Source of the DNA: Candidatus Hydrothermarchaeota archaeon
GTDB taxonomy: Archaea; Hydrothermarchaeota; Hydrothermarchaeia; Hydrothermarchaeales; BMS3B
DNA length: 61,188 bases
Direction: 5' to 3'
Assembly (NCBI GenBank): GCA_015521615.1
Contig: WANW01000096.1
Location: 1-61,188 of the forward strand
Position 1 is the first letter of the stretch. Each line of letters opens with the position of its first letter. The position numbers and the translations under genes are program-made. The notes under the pieces were generated by a model. It saw only the letters and a list, made by a program, of their open reading frames with translations. It made no database searches and was not told where the DNA came from. Shown here piece by piece: positions 6,313-59,475 of the stretch.

Positions 6313-9753
<3,441 letters not shown>

Positions 9754-55679: not shown

Positions 55680-57419
55680 ATGACAGCAATGGAGGAAGAC
55701 CACCTGGAGTTCCAGCTGAAGCAGGTTAATCCTGAGGAGACGCTGGAGGAGCAGTTTGTTAAACAGAGACAGACCTATCTGTTCTACAAGTTAGCGTGGA
55801 TACAGGAGTTCTTTGACAGAAAGAAGCTCGCACAGGAGCTTGCCTTTCTTGTGATGATGATATATATCTACGACTTTATAGATCGCCTTGGCATGCGCTT
55901 TGCCGACCGAATTCTCAACTTTTTATCCTTTACCGGCTGGCCGCTGGAAAAGTTTCGCTCCCTTATGGGGCTCAACCTGGAGGCCAAGATAGCCATGGCG
56001 GTGGCGCTTGAGTATCCCGAGAAAACTCAGGAGGAGCAGGAGAAGATTGTGGAGCTGGTAACCACCGCCTACTCTTGGCTTGGCCTTGCAAGAGAGCAGG
56101 AGTGGGAGATAGCGCGTGTTGTGAAGCAGAAGCGCTGGCTTTACTCACTCCTCAACTCAGAGCCGGAGCAGAAACGCCGTGAGCTGATTGAGAGACTGCG
56201 CGAAGGCGACGGAAAGCGAGTAGAGCTCAACCTTGTGAACATCGGTATTGTTCCAACTGAGCTCTGCCCCAACAGGTGCCGCTTCTGTCTCGCAGCCTGG
56301 AAGACGAGCTGCGAGGAGAGAATAGGGCGGAGCATAAGCGAGGAGGAGTTCGAGGTTATAGCGGATGAGGTTATAAACTTCGCAGATGAGCGTGGGCTTA
56401 TTATTACAGTGACAGGGGGTGAGCCCTTCCTGGAGCTGGAGCGCGTGCTCTACCTGGTGAAGCATGCTCGCTCCCGCCTGGACATAACCACCAGCGCCTA
56501 CTGGGCACGTGATATTGGCAAAGCCAAGGAGATTCTTTCAAAGCTCAGTGACGCAGCGAAGGAGAACCACAATGAAAACTTCAAGTTTACACTGCAGGTT
56601 AGCCTGGACGCCTTCCACCAGGAGGTGTTCTTTGAGAAGGGTGAGTTTGTGCAGAATGTGCCCATAGAGTGCATAATAAATCTGCTGAAGCTGACGCAGG
56701 AGGAGTTTCCGGAGATTGAGGTAGTTCTCCTCACAAAGCTAACGTCCTACGAGGATCCCCTCGCACGGCTCATAAAGCTGCTGGAGAAGCAGGGGATGAA
56801 GGTCAGGCTTACGCGGAAGGTGACGCAGCCAGGTGTTACGGTGAACCTCTTGGACGAAAATCGCAATCTCGTGGCAAAGCCGGCGCTGCTCAAGGCTTAC
56901 CTGGAGTTTGAGGGGACGCCTGGAAAGCCGGTGCTTATCTTCTATACAGTGGTGGAGAGCATGGGCAAGGCTTCAGCACTCGACGCCTTTGAGTTTCCGG
57001 GCTTCAGAGAACAGGTGCAGGAGCTTCTCAGGGGTAAGAGTGAGATTAAGCTTCCGCTTATAGGCCTCGAGGTGAGTGATGATGGCAATGTTTATCCAGG
57101 GGCACATTCTCTCTATGCCTGGAGCGCTGGAAACCTCCTTGAAGAAGGGCTGGAAGATATATATGAGCGTCTGAGCTACGACCCTCTCATAGTCACCCTT
57201 GCAGAAGAACCCGCAAAGATCTTCGAGATAGCGCGGGAGGTTGAAGGCGAGCGCGTTGATGCGGTAGCTATAAAGGAATCCTCACCTTTAGCTGCGGTGT
57301 ATAAGATTCTGGAAGCTCCCTGGATGCGTCTGTACATTACGCGGCGCCTTCTCGGTGAGTCCCAGGAAAAGGCAAAGGAGGAGTACCAGAAATACAGAGA
57401 GGAGTATCGCCCTGAATAA
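55680..57419 (+). CDS. radical SAM protein with a ~190-aa N-terminal helical extension
   Basis: CPNRCRFC lies at residues 196-203 and TVTGGEPF is the SAM-binding GGE motif. There is no second Cys cluster. An ATATTTAT box lies about 30 nt upstream with no SD, which suggests a leaderless start (inference). Confidence 0.75.
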   Translation: MTAMEEDHLEFQLKQVNPEETLEEQFVKQRQTYLFYKLAWIQEFFDRKKLAQELAFLVMMIYIYDFIDRLGMRFADRILNFLSFTGWPLEKFRSLMGLNLEAKIAMAVALEYPEKTQEEQEKIVELVTTAYSWLGLAREQEWEIARVVKQKRWLYSLLNSEPEQKRRELIERLREGDGKRVELNLVNIGIVPTELCPNRCRFCLAAWKTSCEERIGRSISEEEFEVIADEVINFADERGLIITVTGGEPFLELERVLYLVKHARSRLDITTSAYWARDIGKAKEILSKLSDAAKENHNENFKFTLQVSLDAFHQEVFFEKGEFVQNVPIECIINLLKLTQEEFPEIEVVLLTKLTSYEDPLARLIKLLEKQGMKVRLTRKVTQPGVTVNLLDENRNLVAKPALLKAYLEFEGTPGKPVLIFYTVVESMGKASALDAFEFPGFREQVQELLRGKSEIKLPLIGLEVSDDGNVYPGAHSLYAWSAGNLLEEGLEDIYERLSYDPLIVTLAEEPAKIFEIAREVEGERVDAVAIKESSPLAAVYKILEAPWMRLYITRRLLGESQEKAKEEYQKYREEYRPE

Positions 57420-57485: not shown

Positions 57486-57493
57486 TTATAAAT
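57486..57493 (+). promoter_or_regulatory. TATA-box-like element (TTATAAAT) upstream of the small ORFs / SPASM gene
   Basis: It lies about 38 nt upstream of ATG 57528. It is immediately followed by ATATCCTGCCGATTCAAA, a motif also present downstream of the TATA of the gene at 53091. Confidence 0.35.
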
Positions 57494-57527
57494 ATCCTGC
57501 CGATTCAAAAATAGTCAGGGTGATTAA

Positions 57528-57596
57528 ATGAAAATCGTGAAGAAGGAAAAGAAAGTTGCATATGCGACATGTAAGTGCCATAAGAGCTGCATGTAG
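57528..57596 (+). CDS. unannotated 22-aa Lys/Cys-rich ORF, candidate precursor peptide
   Basis: Hand translation gives MKIVKKEKKVAYATCKCHKSCM*, with 7 Lys and a C-x-C-x3-C tail. The SD GGTGA lies 4 nt before the ATG. Frame indexing was cross-checked against track ORF 57556. Confidence 0.55.
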   Translation: MKIVKKEKKVAYATCKCHKSCM

Positions 57597-57627
57597 CTCT
57601 TTTTCTTTTATTTTTGAGGTGATTCTA

Positions 57628-57768
57628 ATGGACCTAACCGAGGAGATTCGAGCGAGGGTGTGCAGACGTTGCGACTTTTACAAGGAGGGCGAGACCCTGG
57701 AGTGTGCCGCCTTCAAGACAGCGAAGCGCCTTGTTGAACAGGGGAAGGTCAGCCTGGATGAAATATAA
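57628..57768 (+). CDS. small 46-aa CxxC protein (accessory protein or second precursor)
   Basis: The sequence is MDLTEEIRARVCRRCDFYKEGETLECAAFKTAKRLVEQGKVSLDEI. The SD GAGGTGA lies 5 nt before the ATG. The track ORF 57556..57768 starts at a TTG that overlaps the 22-aa ORF. Confidence 0.6.
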   Translation: MDLTEEIRARVCRRCDFYKEGETLECAAFKTAKRLVEQGKVSLDEI

Positions 57769-57779
57769 TCTGAATCGCC

Positions 57780-58961
57780 ATGTATCCCAGACTTAAGAAC
57801 TGTGTGCTACGCGCTGGTGAGGGCTATTTTCTTTACAATTATGTTGAGGATGTGGTTTATGAGCTTGACCTTGAGGCGCTGGAGCTGCTGCGCTGCTTCA
57901 CAGGTAAAAACAGCCTTGAAGCTCTGGCATGCGAATTTGGAGAGGGGAAGGTAAGGGAGGTGGTGGAGTACCTCCTGGGCGAGGGTTGTCTCGTCGATGA
58001 GCATAACGAAGATGCGCCGCAGAGCTTTATTGTAGAGCACTTTACGCCGTCGCTGCGCTACCTTCAGCTTCACATCACAGAACGGTGCAACCTCGCGTGC
58101 AGGCACTGCTACCTGGGTGAGAAGTCATGCATAGACCTGCCCAGAGAACTCGCCTTTAAGGCGGTGGAGGAGTTCTCACGCTTCGGGTGGAAGCTTTTAA
58201 TCACCGGCGGAGAGCCCATGCTCTCTCCCTACTTCTGGGAGCTGGTGAGCTTCGCTTCTCAACTTGGTGTACGCTTGGTGGTGCTCACCAATGGTACGCT
58301 TATCAGCGAAGCCACCGCAAAGCGCCTCGCCGAGCATGTTCATGAGGTGCAAATTAGTTTAGATGGCATTAAGCACGGACATGAGGCGCTCCGCGGGGAG
58401 GGAAGCTTCGCTAAAACACTTCGCGGAATAGAGGCAGCCGCCAAATACATGAGGGTGAGTATTGCTACAATGATTCATCGTGAGAATTTAAAAGAGTTCC
58501 CGCAGCTTGAGAAGCTTATTAAAAGCTTGGGTGTAGAGGAGTGGAGCCTGGATGTGCCCTCCCCCAAGGGGAGCTTACTGGAGAACGCGGAGCTTCTCCC
58601 GCCCCTTGAAGAGGCTGCAAGGATATACTCGAAGTATGGCTTCTCCTCCGGTGTGCATGAGGGTAGCGCTGAATATGCTTGCGGCGCTCACCTCTGCTCA
58701 GTTAATGTAAAAGGCGAAGTGACAAAGTGCGGATTCTTTGAGCATGGGGTGGGCAATCTTGCAGAAATTTCACTTAAAGAAGGCTGGAAGAGGATAGTTG
58801 AGAGCTATCTGCCAAAGCTGAGCGAACTCGCTTGTGCAGATTGCAAATACCTCAGCGCCTGTAGAGGTGGGTGTAGATTCAGAGCACTAAGCGAGGGAGA
58901 CTTTCTGGGCAAAGATAGCTTTCTATGCCTGCTCTACTCAAAGGTTCACAATCTTCAGTGA
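57780..58961 (+). CDS. radical SAM / SPASM-like peptide maturase with an N-terminal PqqD-type (RRE-like) domain
   Basis: The N-terminal ~85 aa (YFLYNYVEDVVYELDLEALELLRCFTGKNSLEALACEFGEGKVREVVEYLLGEGCLVDE) reads like a PqqD/RiPP-recognition element. CNLACRHC is CxxxCxxC. The C-terminus is CGAHLCSVNVKGEVTKCGFF...CADCKYLSACRGGCRF. Confidence 0.8.
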   Translation: MYPRLKNCVLRAGEGYFLYNYVEDVVYELDLEALELLRCFTGKNSLEALACEFGEGKVREVVEYLLGEGCLVDEHNEDAPQSFIVEHFTPSLRYLQLHITERCNLACRHCYLGEKSCIDLPRELAFKAVEEFSRFGWKLLITGGEPMLSPYFWELVSFASQLGVRLVVLTNGTLISEATAKRLAEHVHEVQISLDGIKHGHEALRGEGSFAKTLRGIEAAAKYMRVSIATMIHRENLKEFPQLEKLIKSLGVEEWSLDVPSPKGSLLENAELLPPLEEAARIYSKYGFSSGVHEGSAEYACGAHLCSVNVKGEVTKCGFFEHGVGNLAEISLKEGWKRIVESYLPKLSELACADCKYLSACRGGCRFRALSEGDFLGKDSFLCLLYSKVHNLQ

Positions 58962-59335
58962 CCCCTCATAGTCACCGCTTTTTTGAACTCCTCCCATCCT
59001 ATAGCAACATCCAGCGTATACCCCTCACCTGCCATTGCCTTCATCATGTTCATAACCCTCTCCCTGAGCTTTTCCTTCCCGAACTCTTCCACCTCATCAT
59101 GCTTTTCCGGGAAGTAGTACACCATAAGCCTCTCCCCCATGTCATGGTAAAGCAGGGGAATTTCATAGCGATTGAGCTTCCCGCACCTCTCACAAATGGC
59201 CATGTTAAGCTCGTTATTTAAGAGTTTGCCCTTCAGCTCAGGATCGAGAGTAACATTTACACTGTGGTAGAGTGCAGCTTCAACATCACCCCCACACCAA
59301 CCGCATTTCAGTTTGTAAATACCCACCTGAGTCAT
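58955..59335 (-). CDS. CpXC-like zinc-ribbon domain protein
   Basis: The start MTQVGIYKLKCGWCGG is at 59335. The sequence continues ...SVNVTLDPELKGKLLNNELNMAICERCGK..., and the pattern resembles the CpXC domain family. Confidence 0.55.
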   Translation of the reverse strand: MTQVGIYKLKCGWCGGDVEAALYHSVNVTLDPELKGKLLNNELNMAICERCGKLNRYEIPLLYHDMGERLMVYYFPEKHDEVEEFGKEKLRERVMNMMKAMAGEGYTLDVAIGWEEFKKAVTMRGH

Positions 59336-59475
59336 ATCCCTGCCCCCATATATGCTACATACCATAAAAATACCGTCCTCTGATATAGTTGTTATTATTT
59401 GTGGTGTTTATATAAATTTATAAAGGAGTTTGCCACAACACCAGCTTTTAAAAAGCATGAGAAAAACAAAGACGG

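Follow-up and report, generated by a model that had tools for sequence, protein, structure and literature searches.

What do two very short, cysteine-bearing reading frames encode immediately upstream of a radical S-adenosylmethionine (SAM) gene in a Candidatus Hydrothermarchaeota archaeon? The question arises at positions 57486-58961 of contig WANW01000096.1, of which we analysed a stretch of 61,188 nucleotides (nt), hereafter the window, checking both small open reading frames (ORFs) and the maturase gene directly on the sequence. On balance, we favour the answer that this segment is a single transcription unit and a self-contained peptide maturation system of the RiPP type (peptides made by the ribosome and modified after translation) with three parts: a precursor peptide of 22 amino acids (aa), a 46-aa mini-protein with three cysteines and a 393-aa maturase. 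The predicted features of this unit are the following.

57486-57493 (+): TATA-like box TTATAAAT, ~35-42 nt 5' of the peptide start codon; putative promoter
57519-57523 (+): Shine-Dalgarno-like GGTGA, 4 nt ahead of the peptide ATG
57528-57596 (+): predicted gene of the precursor, a peptide of 22 aa, MKIVKKEKKVAYATCKCHKSCM; basic leader, then a core with C-x-C-x3-C at the C-terminus
57597-57615 (+): T-rich tract CTCTTTTTCTTTTATTTTT, directly 3' of the peptide stop codon; putative leaky archaeal oligo-T terminator
57616-57622 (+): Shine-Dalgarno-like GAGGTGA, 5' of the 46-aa ORF
57628-57768 (+): three-cysteine mini-protein gene, 46 aa, MDLTEEIRARVCRRCDFYKEGETLECAAFKTAKRLVEQGKVSLDEI; ATG start; C12-x2-C15-x-F-Y ... 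L-E-C26-A-A-F-K
57780-58961 (+): maturase gene, 393 aa; CNLACRHC at residues 103-110

The two small ORFs had been proposed in an earlier reading made from the letters of the DNA without database searches (the sequence-only reading), and every coordinate and string in it agrees with the sequence. The peptide ORF runs from ATG 57528 to a stop codon at 57594-57596 and has 22 codons, seven of them for Lys; a spacer of 108 nt separates it from the end, at 57419, of an upstream gene for a 579-aa radical SAM protein. Between the peptide stop codon and the mini-protein ATG there are 31 nt, made up of the T-rich tract and then GAGGTGA, and the mini-protein and maturase genes are 11 nt apart. Both small ORFs are preceded by the motif GGTGA-N3-8-ATG, which occurs 32 times in the window against 8.5 expected, a number reached in none of 100 shuffles. 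This enrichment makes the earlier comparison of the sites of the small ORFs with the Shine-Dalgarno sites of real genes a fair one.

It had also been stated that neither small ORF is among the listed ORFs of at least 60 aa, which is slightly inaccurate for the 46-aa frame, since a TTG-started extension of 70 aa (57556-57768, +), overlapping the 3' end of the peptide ORF, could be listed for it. Judging from the homologues, the real start of the 46-aa protein is fixed at ATG 57628. Two proteins in public data, P0121 (70 aa) and P0123 (68 aa), resemble the TTG-extended calls, and such extension is a likely source of mis-annotation. Rfam searches of the spacer gave sub-threshold matches only (isrF, 20 bits against a cutoff of 40, and two plant or animal microRNA models); these are at chance level, and a non-coding RNA in the spacer was rejected.

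Conservation of the proposed precursor peptide

Is the 22-mer a gene at all? A scan of a genome collection with the enzyme alignment retrieved, among the matches listed, full-length orthologues of the enzyme (36-44% identity) from Nitrospirota, Desulfobacterota, Syntrophaceae, Dehalococcoidia, Thermoleophilia and other Actinomycetota, and further ones at the same identity from Rokubacteria, Methanobacteriota and Ca. Mnemosynella; Hydrothermarchaeota genomes were not among these matches. A metagenome scan with a single enzyme sequence returned five loci, three of them usable. The peptide was then searched for with a regular expression, followed by a hidden Markov model (HMM) over all short inter-stop segments of the loci. 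A peptide of 20-22 aa adjoins the orthologous enzyme gene in 26 of the 33 family loci (a contig end truncates one of the 26), always with one precursor copy per locus; these loci come from Hydrothermarchaeota, Nitrospirota, Desulfobacterota, Actinomycetota, Dehalococcoidia and Rokubacteria. The distance to the enzyme gene does not exceed 500 nt except in L095 (866 nt), and the two genes share a strand in all but one locus. With the profile of all peptides there was no match at E < 0.5 in 56 control loci holding more distant radical SAM genes. Enzymes and peptides compare with those of the window as follows.

L001/L002/L090: enzyme 89% identical; peptide the same as in the window
L003/L004: enzyme 57% identical; peptide MKISKINKKVLYSCAQCHKGCM
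L009: enzyme 52% identical; peptide MKIRKIDKKTSYGACKCGNSCM
L095: enzyme 53% identical; peptide MKIRKIKKEMRYGACDCKMTCM
L096: enzyme 55% identical; peptide (V/L)KIKKVKKVQRYAACKCHKSCL

Bacterial peptides of 20-21 aa stand beside orthologous enzymes, for example MKIKKVKRVSRGMCKCKSSC, MRITKIPRRKGGTCKCNKSCG and MTIKKVTRKMATTCKCKSSC, and have strong ribosome-binding sites of the GGAGG type. In all archaeal loci, an A/T-rich, TATA-like element lies ~35-45 nt 5' of the peptide start, which a Shine-Dalgarno-like motif likewise precedes; L001, L003, L009, L095, L096 and L030 have such an element at the same distance as the window. The family shares the signature M-[KRT]-[IV]-x-[KR]-[IVKM]-x-[KR]-[KR]-x3-4-C-[KEDQ]-C-x2-[STG]-C, optionally followed by M, L, G or S, with peptides ending in C, CM, CG or CL. 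Its leader motif, MKIxK[IV]xKK, is basic (the leader part of the window peptide is MKIVKKEKKVAY), and the C-x-C-x3-C end is almost invariant; apart from Cys, the core is best conserved in a Lys at position -6 and a Ser/Thr at position -2, counted from the last Cys.

Over the 22 codons the window and L001 show six differences, of which six are synonymous and none is non-synonymous. Moreover, when a profile was built from the bacterial peptides only, leaving the clade of the window out, the window 22-mer ranked first of 2,436 inter-stop segments (E 0.012). Both results support translation, and by these comparisons the 22-mer is a genuine gene that has been conserved. It has no match among the models of Pfam or NCBIfam, a full-text literature search for six core strings (CKCKSSC and others) found no paper, and keyword searches returned generic literature on radical SAM RiPPs only, in keeping with the earlier remark that it resembles no named precursor family. 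In syntenic loci, conservation of the enzyme goes along with that of both small ORFs, a point on which the sequence-only reading had staked itself; the mini-protein is present in 20 of the 33 loci. Its description of the cassette as archaeal has to be widened, because the genome-collection scan places it in at least six bacterial phyla too; homology thus indicates a cassette conserved across anaerobic archaea and at least six bacterial phyla, and not specific to archaea.

The order of the genes varies among these groups, and this bears on whether the ORF encodes a substrate. The peptide gene is upstream of the enzyme gene in Desulfobacterota and archaea, downstream of it in Nitrospirota, Actinomycetota, Dehalococcoidia and Rokubacteria, and on the opposite strand in L010. 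Were the 22-codon ORF a regulatory upstream leader peptide, such as a cysteine-sensing attenuator, its place ahead of the enzyme operon in archaea and Desulfobacterota and the T-rich tract 3' of it in the window would be explained, but not the downstream and opposite-strand genes, nor the conservation at the amino-acid level of the basic N-terminal motif and of the exact Cys spacing. The tract itself is identical in L001 and T-rich in L095, but L003, L009 and L096, whose genes adjoin or overlap each other, do not have it; by this comparison it is not conserved, and a role as terminator is possible. An attenuator is therefore barely conceivable to us, and we retain the reading of the 22-mer as a substrate.

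Architecture of the predicted maturase

What kind of enzyme would act on such a peptide? We aligned 34 homologues of the 393-aa protein and built an AlphaFold2 model on this alignment. According to both, the protein is an RRE (RiPP recognition element) joined to a radical SAM core and a full SPASM domain, with cluster and leader binding predicted.

57780-58034 (+): RRE domain, residues 1-85 (AlphaFold2 model of the domain plus Foldseek)
58059-58649 (+): radical SAM core, residues ~94-290 (Pfam PF04055)
58662-58961 (+): SPASM domain, residues ~295-393, plus stop codon (conserved Cys 301, 306, 317, 352, 355, 361, 365 and 383)

The radical SAM core is the only Pfam domain that scored above threshold in the enzyme (PF04055, E 5.8e-22, 79 bits against a cutoff of 29.5), and its motif C103-N-L-A-C107-R-H-C110 (CX3CX2C; nt 58086-58109) is invariant in the 34 homologues. 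In the radical SAM superfamily this motif ligates the SAM-binding [4Fe-4S] cluster inside a partial TIM barrel. SPASM proteins are defined by a C-terminal cysteine set (C...G...C, followed by CX2CX5CX3C and a last C) for two auxiliary [4Fe-4S] clusters. The C-terminus, earlier noted as rich in cysteine, carries the full SPASM set: C301, C317-G, C352-x2-C355-x5-C361-x3-C365 and C383 are invariant in the same alignment and C306 is conserved in at least 90% of it. The whole enzyme was modelled with a predicted local distance difference test score (pLDDT) of 93.2 and a predicted template modelling score of 0.91, and Foldseek against the PDB placed SkfB, CteB and SuiB on top, over ~400-450 aligned columns. 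Likewise, a profile-to-PDB sequence search put SkfB first (E 6.8e-25), and the alignments with CteB and TigE extend through the N-terminal domain. SkfB, CteB and SuiB, the closest solved relatives of the enzyme, are peptide maturases. A comparison with HMMs of maturase families, which the sequence-only reading had suggested, gave 76 sub-threshold NCBIfam matches and reached no equivalog cutoff.

The proposal that the first ~85 residues form an RRE agrees well with the model of that domain. Residues 1-85, modelled alone (AlphaFold2, pLDDT 94.7), have strands at 8-12, 16-20 and 25-29 and then three helices, the beta-beta-beta-alpha-alpha-alpha topology of an RRE, a winged helix-turn-helix of about 85 aa to which leader peptides bind. 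The best Foldseek match of this domain is a leader-bound lasso-peptide B1 protein (6jx3_B, template modelling score 0.73, root mean square deviation 1.8 Å over 84 columns), followed by TbiB1 and then by the RREs of SuiB, CteB, TigE and McbB. By sequence, PqqD (5sxy, E 0.018) is the PDB entry that the domain profile matches best, with the beta3-alpha1-alpha2 segment aligned.

PADLOC returned generic viperin-core matches for both radical SAM proteins and nothing for the small proteins; as these matches are generic only, a role in anti-phage defence was rejected.

The three-cysteine mini-protein

Which part is left to the 46-aa protein? Its gene keeps a place immediately upstream of the enzyme gene, often overlapping the enzyme start codon, and in many loci the two genes are translationally coupled or overlap. 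Three Cys and one Phe are invariant in its alignment, which follows the pattern [IV]-C-x2-C-[DEQ]-F-[YF]...L-E-C-[AG]-[AS]-[FY]-[KR]-[IL]-[LI]. A narrow profile found 41 clusters at 50% identity among 1.8 billion representatives, and a word-indexed search with the 46-aa sequence found seven close relatives only. Source databases label the protein as hypothetical, and no family in Pfam or NCBIfam covers it. The 90%-identity cluster that holds it has an unrelated 373-aa RlmN-like protein as its representative, which is a clustering artefact.

A two-domain, tandem-duplicated form occurs in Desulfobacterota and in one Nitrospirota locus; the two-domain copy of L029 (Nitrospirota) is divergently transcribed. 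In L020, from a Syntrophaceae metagenome-assembled genome, the two-domain mini-protein makes up the N-terminal part of a 513-aa ORF (7602-9143, +) in which it is joined in frame to the enzyme, with the peptide gene (7508-7570) 31 nt upstream of this ORF; on its sequence, this is a natural Rosetta-stone fusion. We could detect no mini-protein gene in L011, L013, L016-L019, L021, L022, L026 and L031, mostly from Nitrospirota, and in these loci the peptide gene, where found, is downstream of the maturase gene, except in L026, where it is upstream. The conserved upstream position, the L020 fusion and the absence from most Nitrospirota loci together argue that the mini-protein is an accessory partner of the enzyme. 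The precedent named in the sequence-only reading implies a counterpart of PqqD or MftB; since the RRE sits within the enzyme, the 46-aa protein is instead a separate three-cysteine module, neither an RRE nor an analogue of those proteins.

The same evidence bears on the converse assignment, in which the 46-aa protein is the true substrate and the 22-mer an unrelated small protein, for instance metallothionein-like. Its three invariant Cys would suit a substrate, its gene abuts or overlaps the enzyme gene in archaeal loci, and it is kept in L005, L007 and L008, where no 22-mer was seen. Against it stand the fusion to the N-terminus of the enzyme in L020, the tandem duplication in Desulfobacterota and the absence from most Nitrospirota loci, which retain peptide and enzyme; furthermore, the protein is conserved over its full length like a folded domain, with no split into leader and core, and the 22-mer tracks the enzyme in its 26 loci even where it has moved downstream. 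We thus regard this assignment as quite unlikely, and continue with the 22-mer as the precursor and the mini-protein as the partner.

A hint at what such a partner may bind comes from high-potential iron-sulfur proteins (HiPIPs), although the likeness is statistically insignificant both with Pfam HIPIP (E 0.035, with the L014 homologue) and with PDB 3h31 (E 0.4). The C-x2-C-x-[FY]-[YF] ... C-[AG]-[AG] of the mini-protein aligns with the first three cluster ligands of HiPIPs; unlike them, it lacks the fourth ligand and has shorter spacing. We take this as a hint only of metal or iron-sulfur (Fe-S) binding.

Proposed mechanism and nature of the product

How could these three parts work together? 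The basic N-terminal half of the peptide (MKIxK[IV]xKK) would be the leader, and its final seven or eight residues (C-K-C-x-x-S-C, with an M added in this lineage) the core. As the fold suggests, the RRE would bind the leader as an added beta-strand. Following the chemistry of the family, the radical SAM cluster would cleave SAM, and the resulting 5'-deoxyadenosyl radical would take a hydrogen atom from the C-terminal core, after which two SPASM auxiliary clusters could help to form at least one intramolecular cross-link. Because the core is rich in Cys and the enzyme related to SkfB and CteB, a thioether from Cys sulfur to carbon, of the sactipeptide or ranthipeptide kind, seems the most likely bond, though its type is speculative. 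Given the natural L020 fusion, the mini-protein probably docks on the N-terminal side of the enzyme; speculatively, it would hold a metal or Fe-S centre with its three invariant Cys and serve as a partner for electron transfer or substrate handling.

Several observations weigh against this scheme. Our confidence in the scheme as a whole is only somewhat better than even; translation, leader binding and modification are all computational predictions, and the type of cross-link is a guess, the core having few obvious thioether acceptors. The Pfam SPASM model stays below threshold on the enzyme (17.3 bits against 21.5) and the Pfam PqqD model does not match it. The mini-protein does not appear to be universally required, since most Nitrospirota loci show no detectable copy; in those lineages it may be dispensable or encoded elsewhere. 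Finally, no peptide gene was found within the fetched flanks of L005, L007, L008, L013, L016, L019 and L025, so that either adjacency of peptide and enzyme is not obligatory or the peptide gene lies elsewhere. The family loci with no adjacent peptide are thus L005/L006, L007 and L008 in archaea and L013, L016, L019 and L025 in bacteria. Of these, L005, L007 and L008 keep the mini-protein and maturase genes, and either their peptide gene is elsewhere in the genome or mini-protein and maturase serve a different substrate; directly 5' of the mini-protein gene, L007 and L008 have a TATA-like element.

A further adverse point is that the top NCBIfam models on the enzyme are AhbD and NirJ, which belong to the heme pathway, if far below cutoff and over the core only; the best score is that of AhbD, with 125 bits against a cutoff of 500. 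Might the substrate then be a small molecule such as a tetrapyrrole, as with AhbD and NirJ, and the small ORFs be incidental or regulatory? The scores of AhbD, NirJ and NirJ2 (110-125 bits) would speak for it, but they are four to five times below cutoff and reflect the shared core only (residues ~98-272), whereas the enzyme carries an RRE, its fold as a whole points to peptide maturases, the peptide has been conserved together with it and there are no heme-pathway neighbours. A non-peptide substrate is very improbable on this evidence, and a peptide maturase remains our reading of the enzyme.

What would such a maturase produce? No Pfam family is common to more than four of 122 flanking proteins from 19 bacterial and archaeal loci, and all-against-all clustering of flanking ORFs recovered only the three cassette genes and antisense shadow ORFs; by both approaches, no peptidase, transporter or immunity gene is conserved nearby. 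The near-invariance of the core across phyla, the single copy per locus and the lack of a linked protease or exporter make a physiological molecule that stays inside the cell (a metal-binding or redox peptide, for example, or the precursor of a cofactor) more likely than a secreted antibiotic, and the PqqA-like size of the precursor is a further argument for it.

The same system could nonetheless make a classical secreted RiPP, for example an antimicrobial sactipeptide or ranthipeptide, processed by generic proteases and exported by generic transporters whose genes lie elsewhere. Secreted or signalling peptides are what SkfB, CteB and SuiB, the closest solved enzymes, make. In addition, genome mining generally assigns archaeal radical SAM RiPP clusters to the ranthipeptides or sactipeptides (PMC12144867). 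Weighing against a secreted product are, again, the single precursor copy, the want of linked peptidase, transporter or immunity genes in the clustering and Pfam results on the flanks, and an entire precursor of 20-22 aa, within the size range of PqqA. Likewise, antimicrobial RiPP cores are normally hypervariable, whereas this one is nearly invariant from Desulfobacterota to Hydrothermarchaeota. We consider a secreted RiPP unlikely.

Under an intracellular product, a more specific suggestion can be made, which we put forward tentatively and with well under even confidence: the 20-22-aa peptide might be the precursor of a novel peptide-derived cofactor or metal/redox prosthetic molecule, comparable to pyrroloquinoline quinone (PQQ) or mycofactocin, made by the enzyme and the three-cysteine mini-protein in strict anaerobes of both domains. 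Its holders would then, just as tentatively, be Hydrothermarchaeota, archaea related to methanogens and anaerobic methanotrophs (ANME), sulfate reducers, Nitrospirota, Dehalococcoidia and Actinomycetota.

To our knowledge, peptide-derived cofactors are rare, PQQ and mycofactocin being the established examples made by radical SAM/SPASM enzymes, and each of them opened a field. New families of radical SAM RiPPs are reported often, which tempers surprise at another one, while conservation across domains together with cofactor-like traits makes this system a candidate for something more fundamental. Even if the product is an ordinary thioether peptide, the analysis defines a precursor family of 20-22 codons, a length at which gene callers overlook it, and provides a searchable signature for it, M-K-I-x-K-[IV]-x-[KR]-[KR]-x3-4-C-x-C-x2-[ST]-C. 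It also brings in an uncatalogued three-cysteine mini-protein, sometimes fused to the enzyme, and a set of three genes that is amenable to a direct test by co-expression.

Genes around the cassette

Does the cassette extend beyond its three genes? Only in the window, L001 and L003 does the upstream radical SAM gene (55680-57419, +; 579 aa) stand beside the cassette, and by synteny it is not part of the conserved unit. Its protein family is small (46 proteins) and has no NCBIfam equivalog match. Elsewhere, in L097 (5001-6734), L098 (5001-6668) and L099 (5001-6680), its homologues stand beside molybdenum/tungsten (Mo/W) genes, with MoeA, a MoeA-PBP fusion, a MobA-like protein, aldehyde:ferredoxin oxidoreductase, a molybdopterin oxidoreductase and an ABC transporter of the tungstate/molybdate type as neighbours. 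The 579-aa protein is thus possibly an uncharacterised radical SAM enzyme related to the Mo/W cofactor.

Further upstream, the segment 54022-55620 (+) encodes a 532-aa fusion of a lipoate-protein ligase catalytic domain, an LplB-like C-terminal domain and a Cys-rich DUF116 domain. This LplA-LplB-DUF116 fusion is also found in L001, and in L004 it lies further off and on the opposite strand. LipS1 and LipS2, which make up the archaeal lipoyl synthase, are BioB-like proteins annotated as biotin synthases (PMC9585515). The upstream LplA-DUF116 gene had suggested one of them as an identity for the 579-aa protein, which we rejected because it has no BioB- or LipA-like matches and its homologues adjoin MoeA and Mo/W genes, not lipoate genes.

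On the other side, a gene of the CpXC family (PF14353, 5.8e-23; 58955-59365, -) runs towards the maturase gene and shares the last 7 nt of the latter; this CpXC gene is common to the window and L001 and does not occur in L003, L009 or other family loci. In L001, the closest relative, the segment 9384-13182, located 3' of the thermosome gene and past the right end of the window, encodes a permease of the MOT1/sulfate-transporter type, a TFX-family regulator and a PBP_like_2/SBP_bac_11 ABC system of the molybdate/tungstate type. Together with the surroundings of the 579-aa protein family, this gives a loose Mo/W theme around the cassette in this lineage, which may be a coincidence.

Comparison with known systems

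To which known system does the cassette come closest? In sactipeptide and ranthipeptide systems such as SkfA/SkfB, CteA/CteB (including SCIFF) and PapA/PapB, the enzyme likewise joins a radical SAM core to an RRE at the N-terminus and to a SPASM domain at the C-terminus (in SkfB, a related auxiliary-cluster domain rather than SPASM), and the precursors, too, are short peptides rich in Cys that consist of a leader and a core at the C-terminus. By both sequence and fold, the best match is, as seen above, SkfB, and the CteB alignment covers the RRE. The bond is a thioether in both groups, from Cys sulfur to the alpha-carbon in sactipeptides and to a carbon other than alpha in ranthipeptides. With sactipeptide systems the cassette agrees in the architecture of its enzyme, whose closest solved relative is SkfB. 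However, the enzyme scores far below the equivalogs, with 100 bits for StsB against 625 and 73 bits for PapB against 340, and the 20-22-aa precursor, with its C-x-C-x3-C at the extreme C-terminus, fits no catalogued precursor model. The SCIFF precursor has six Cys in about 45 residues; together with the PapB score, the lack of an NCBIfam precursor model on the peptide sets the system apart from SCIFF and the catalogued ranthipeptides. Unlike these systems, moreover, the cassette includes an extra three-cysteine mini-protein, has no linked ABC transporter or peptidase, and is distributed over Archaea and many anaerobic phyla of bacteria with hardly any variation in the core; its thioether is a prediction.

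The PQQ system offers a different likeness, in which a very short precursor, PqqA, of about 22-24 aa, is recognised by a radical SAM/SPASM enzyme and an RRE, its core has been conserved from taxon to taxon and the product stays inside the cell; the best PDB sequence match of the N-terminal domain is also PqqD. In contrast to PqqA/D/E, the RRE is here fused to the enzyme and the 46-aa protein is not an RRE, and in contrast to PqqA, the peptides of the family lack the conserved Glu-x3-Tyr pair. The structure of PqqE is a mid-ranking fold match of the enzyme (rank 13, Foldseek against the PDB). With no Glu/Tyr pair, no NCBIfam score at the level of PqqE and no pqqB, pqqC or pqqF nearby, the cassette does not belong to the PQQ system.

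In its layout, the cassette also resembles MftA/MftB/MftC, which likewise comprises a small peptide, a small accessory protein and a radical SAM/SPASM enzyme; the chemistry takes place at the extreme C-terminus of the peptide, as proposed here, and mycofactocin is an intracellular cofactor. MftC is among the few NCBIfam models that align over both core and SPASM (enzyme residues 97-365). Nevertheless, the peptide lacks the C-terminal Gly-Val-Tyr of MftA, and its accessory protein is a three-cysteine module and not an RRE as MftB. The MftC model (TIGR03962) scores 94 bits against 265 and mftD, mftE and mftF are not present, which sets mycofactocin aside.

Two other families can be judged in the same way. 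The best AhbD/NirJ score, 125 bits in two stretches within the core, compares with cutoffs of at least 500, and the presence of the RRE and the heme-free neighbourhood described above also separate the enzyme from them. Anaerobic sulfatase maturases (anSME) lack an RRE and act on sulfatases with a C/S-x-P/A-x-R motif; their model (TIGR03942) scores 62.7 bits against 349, and the peptide has no such motif. As far as models and motifs can tell, the cassette thus fails the testable definition of each named family, though it shares with them the logic of RRE-dependent radical SAM/SPASM maturation. By the same comparisons, its peptide and mini-protein constitute a new precursor family and a new accessory-protein family that span two domains of life.

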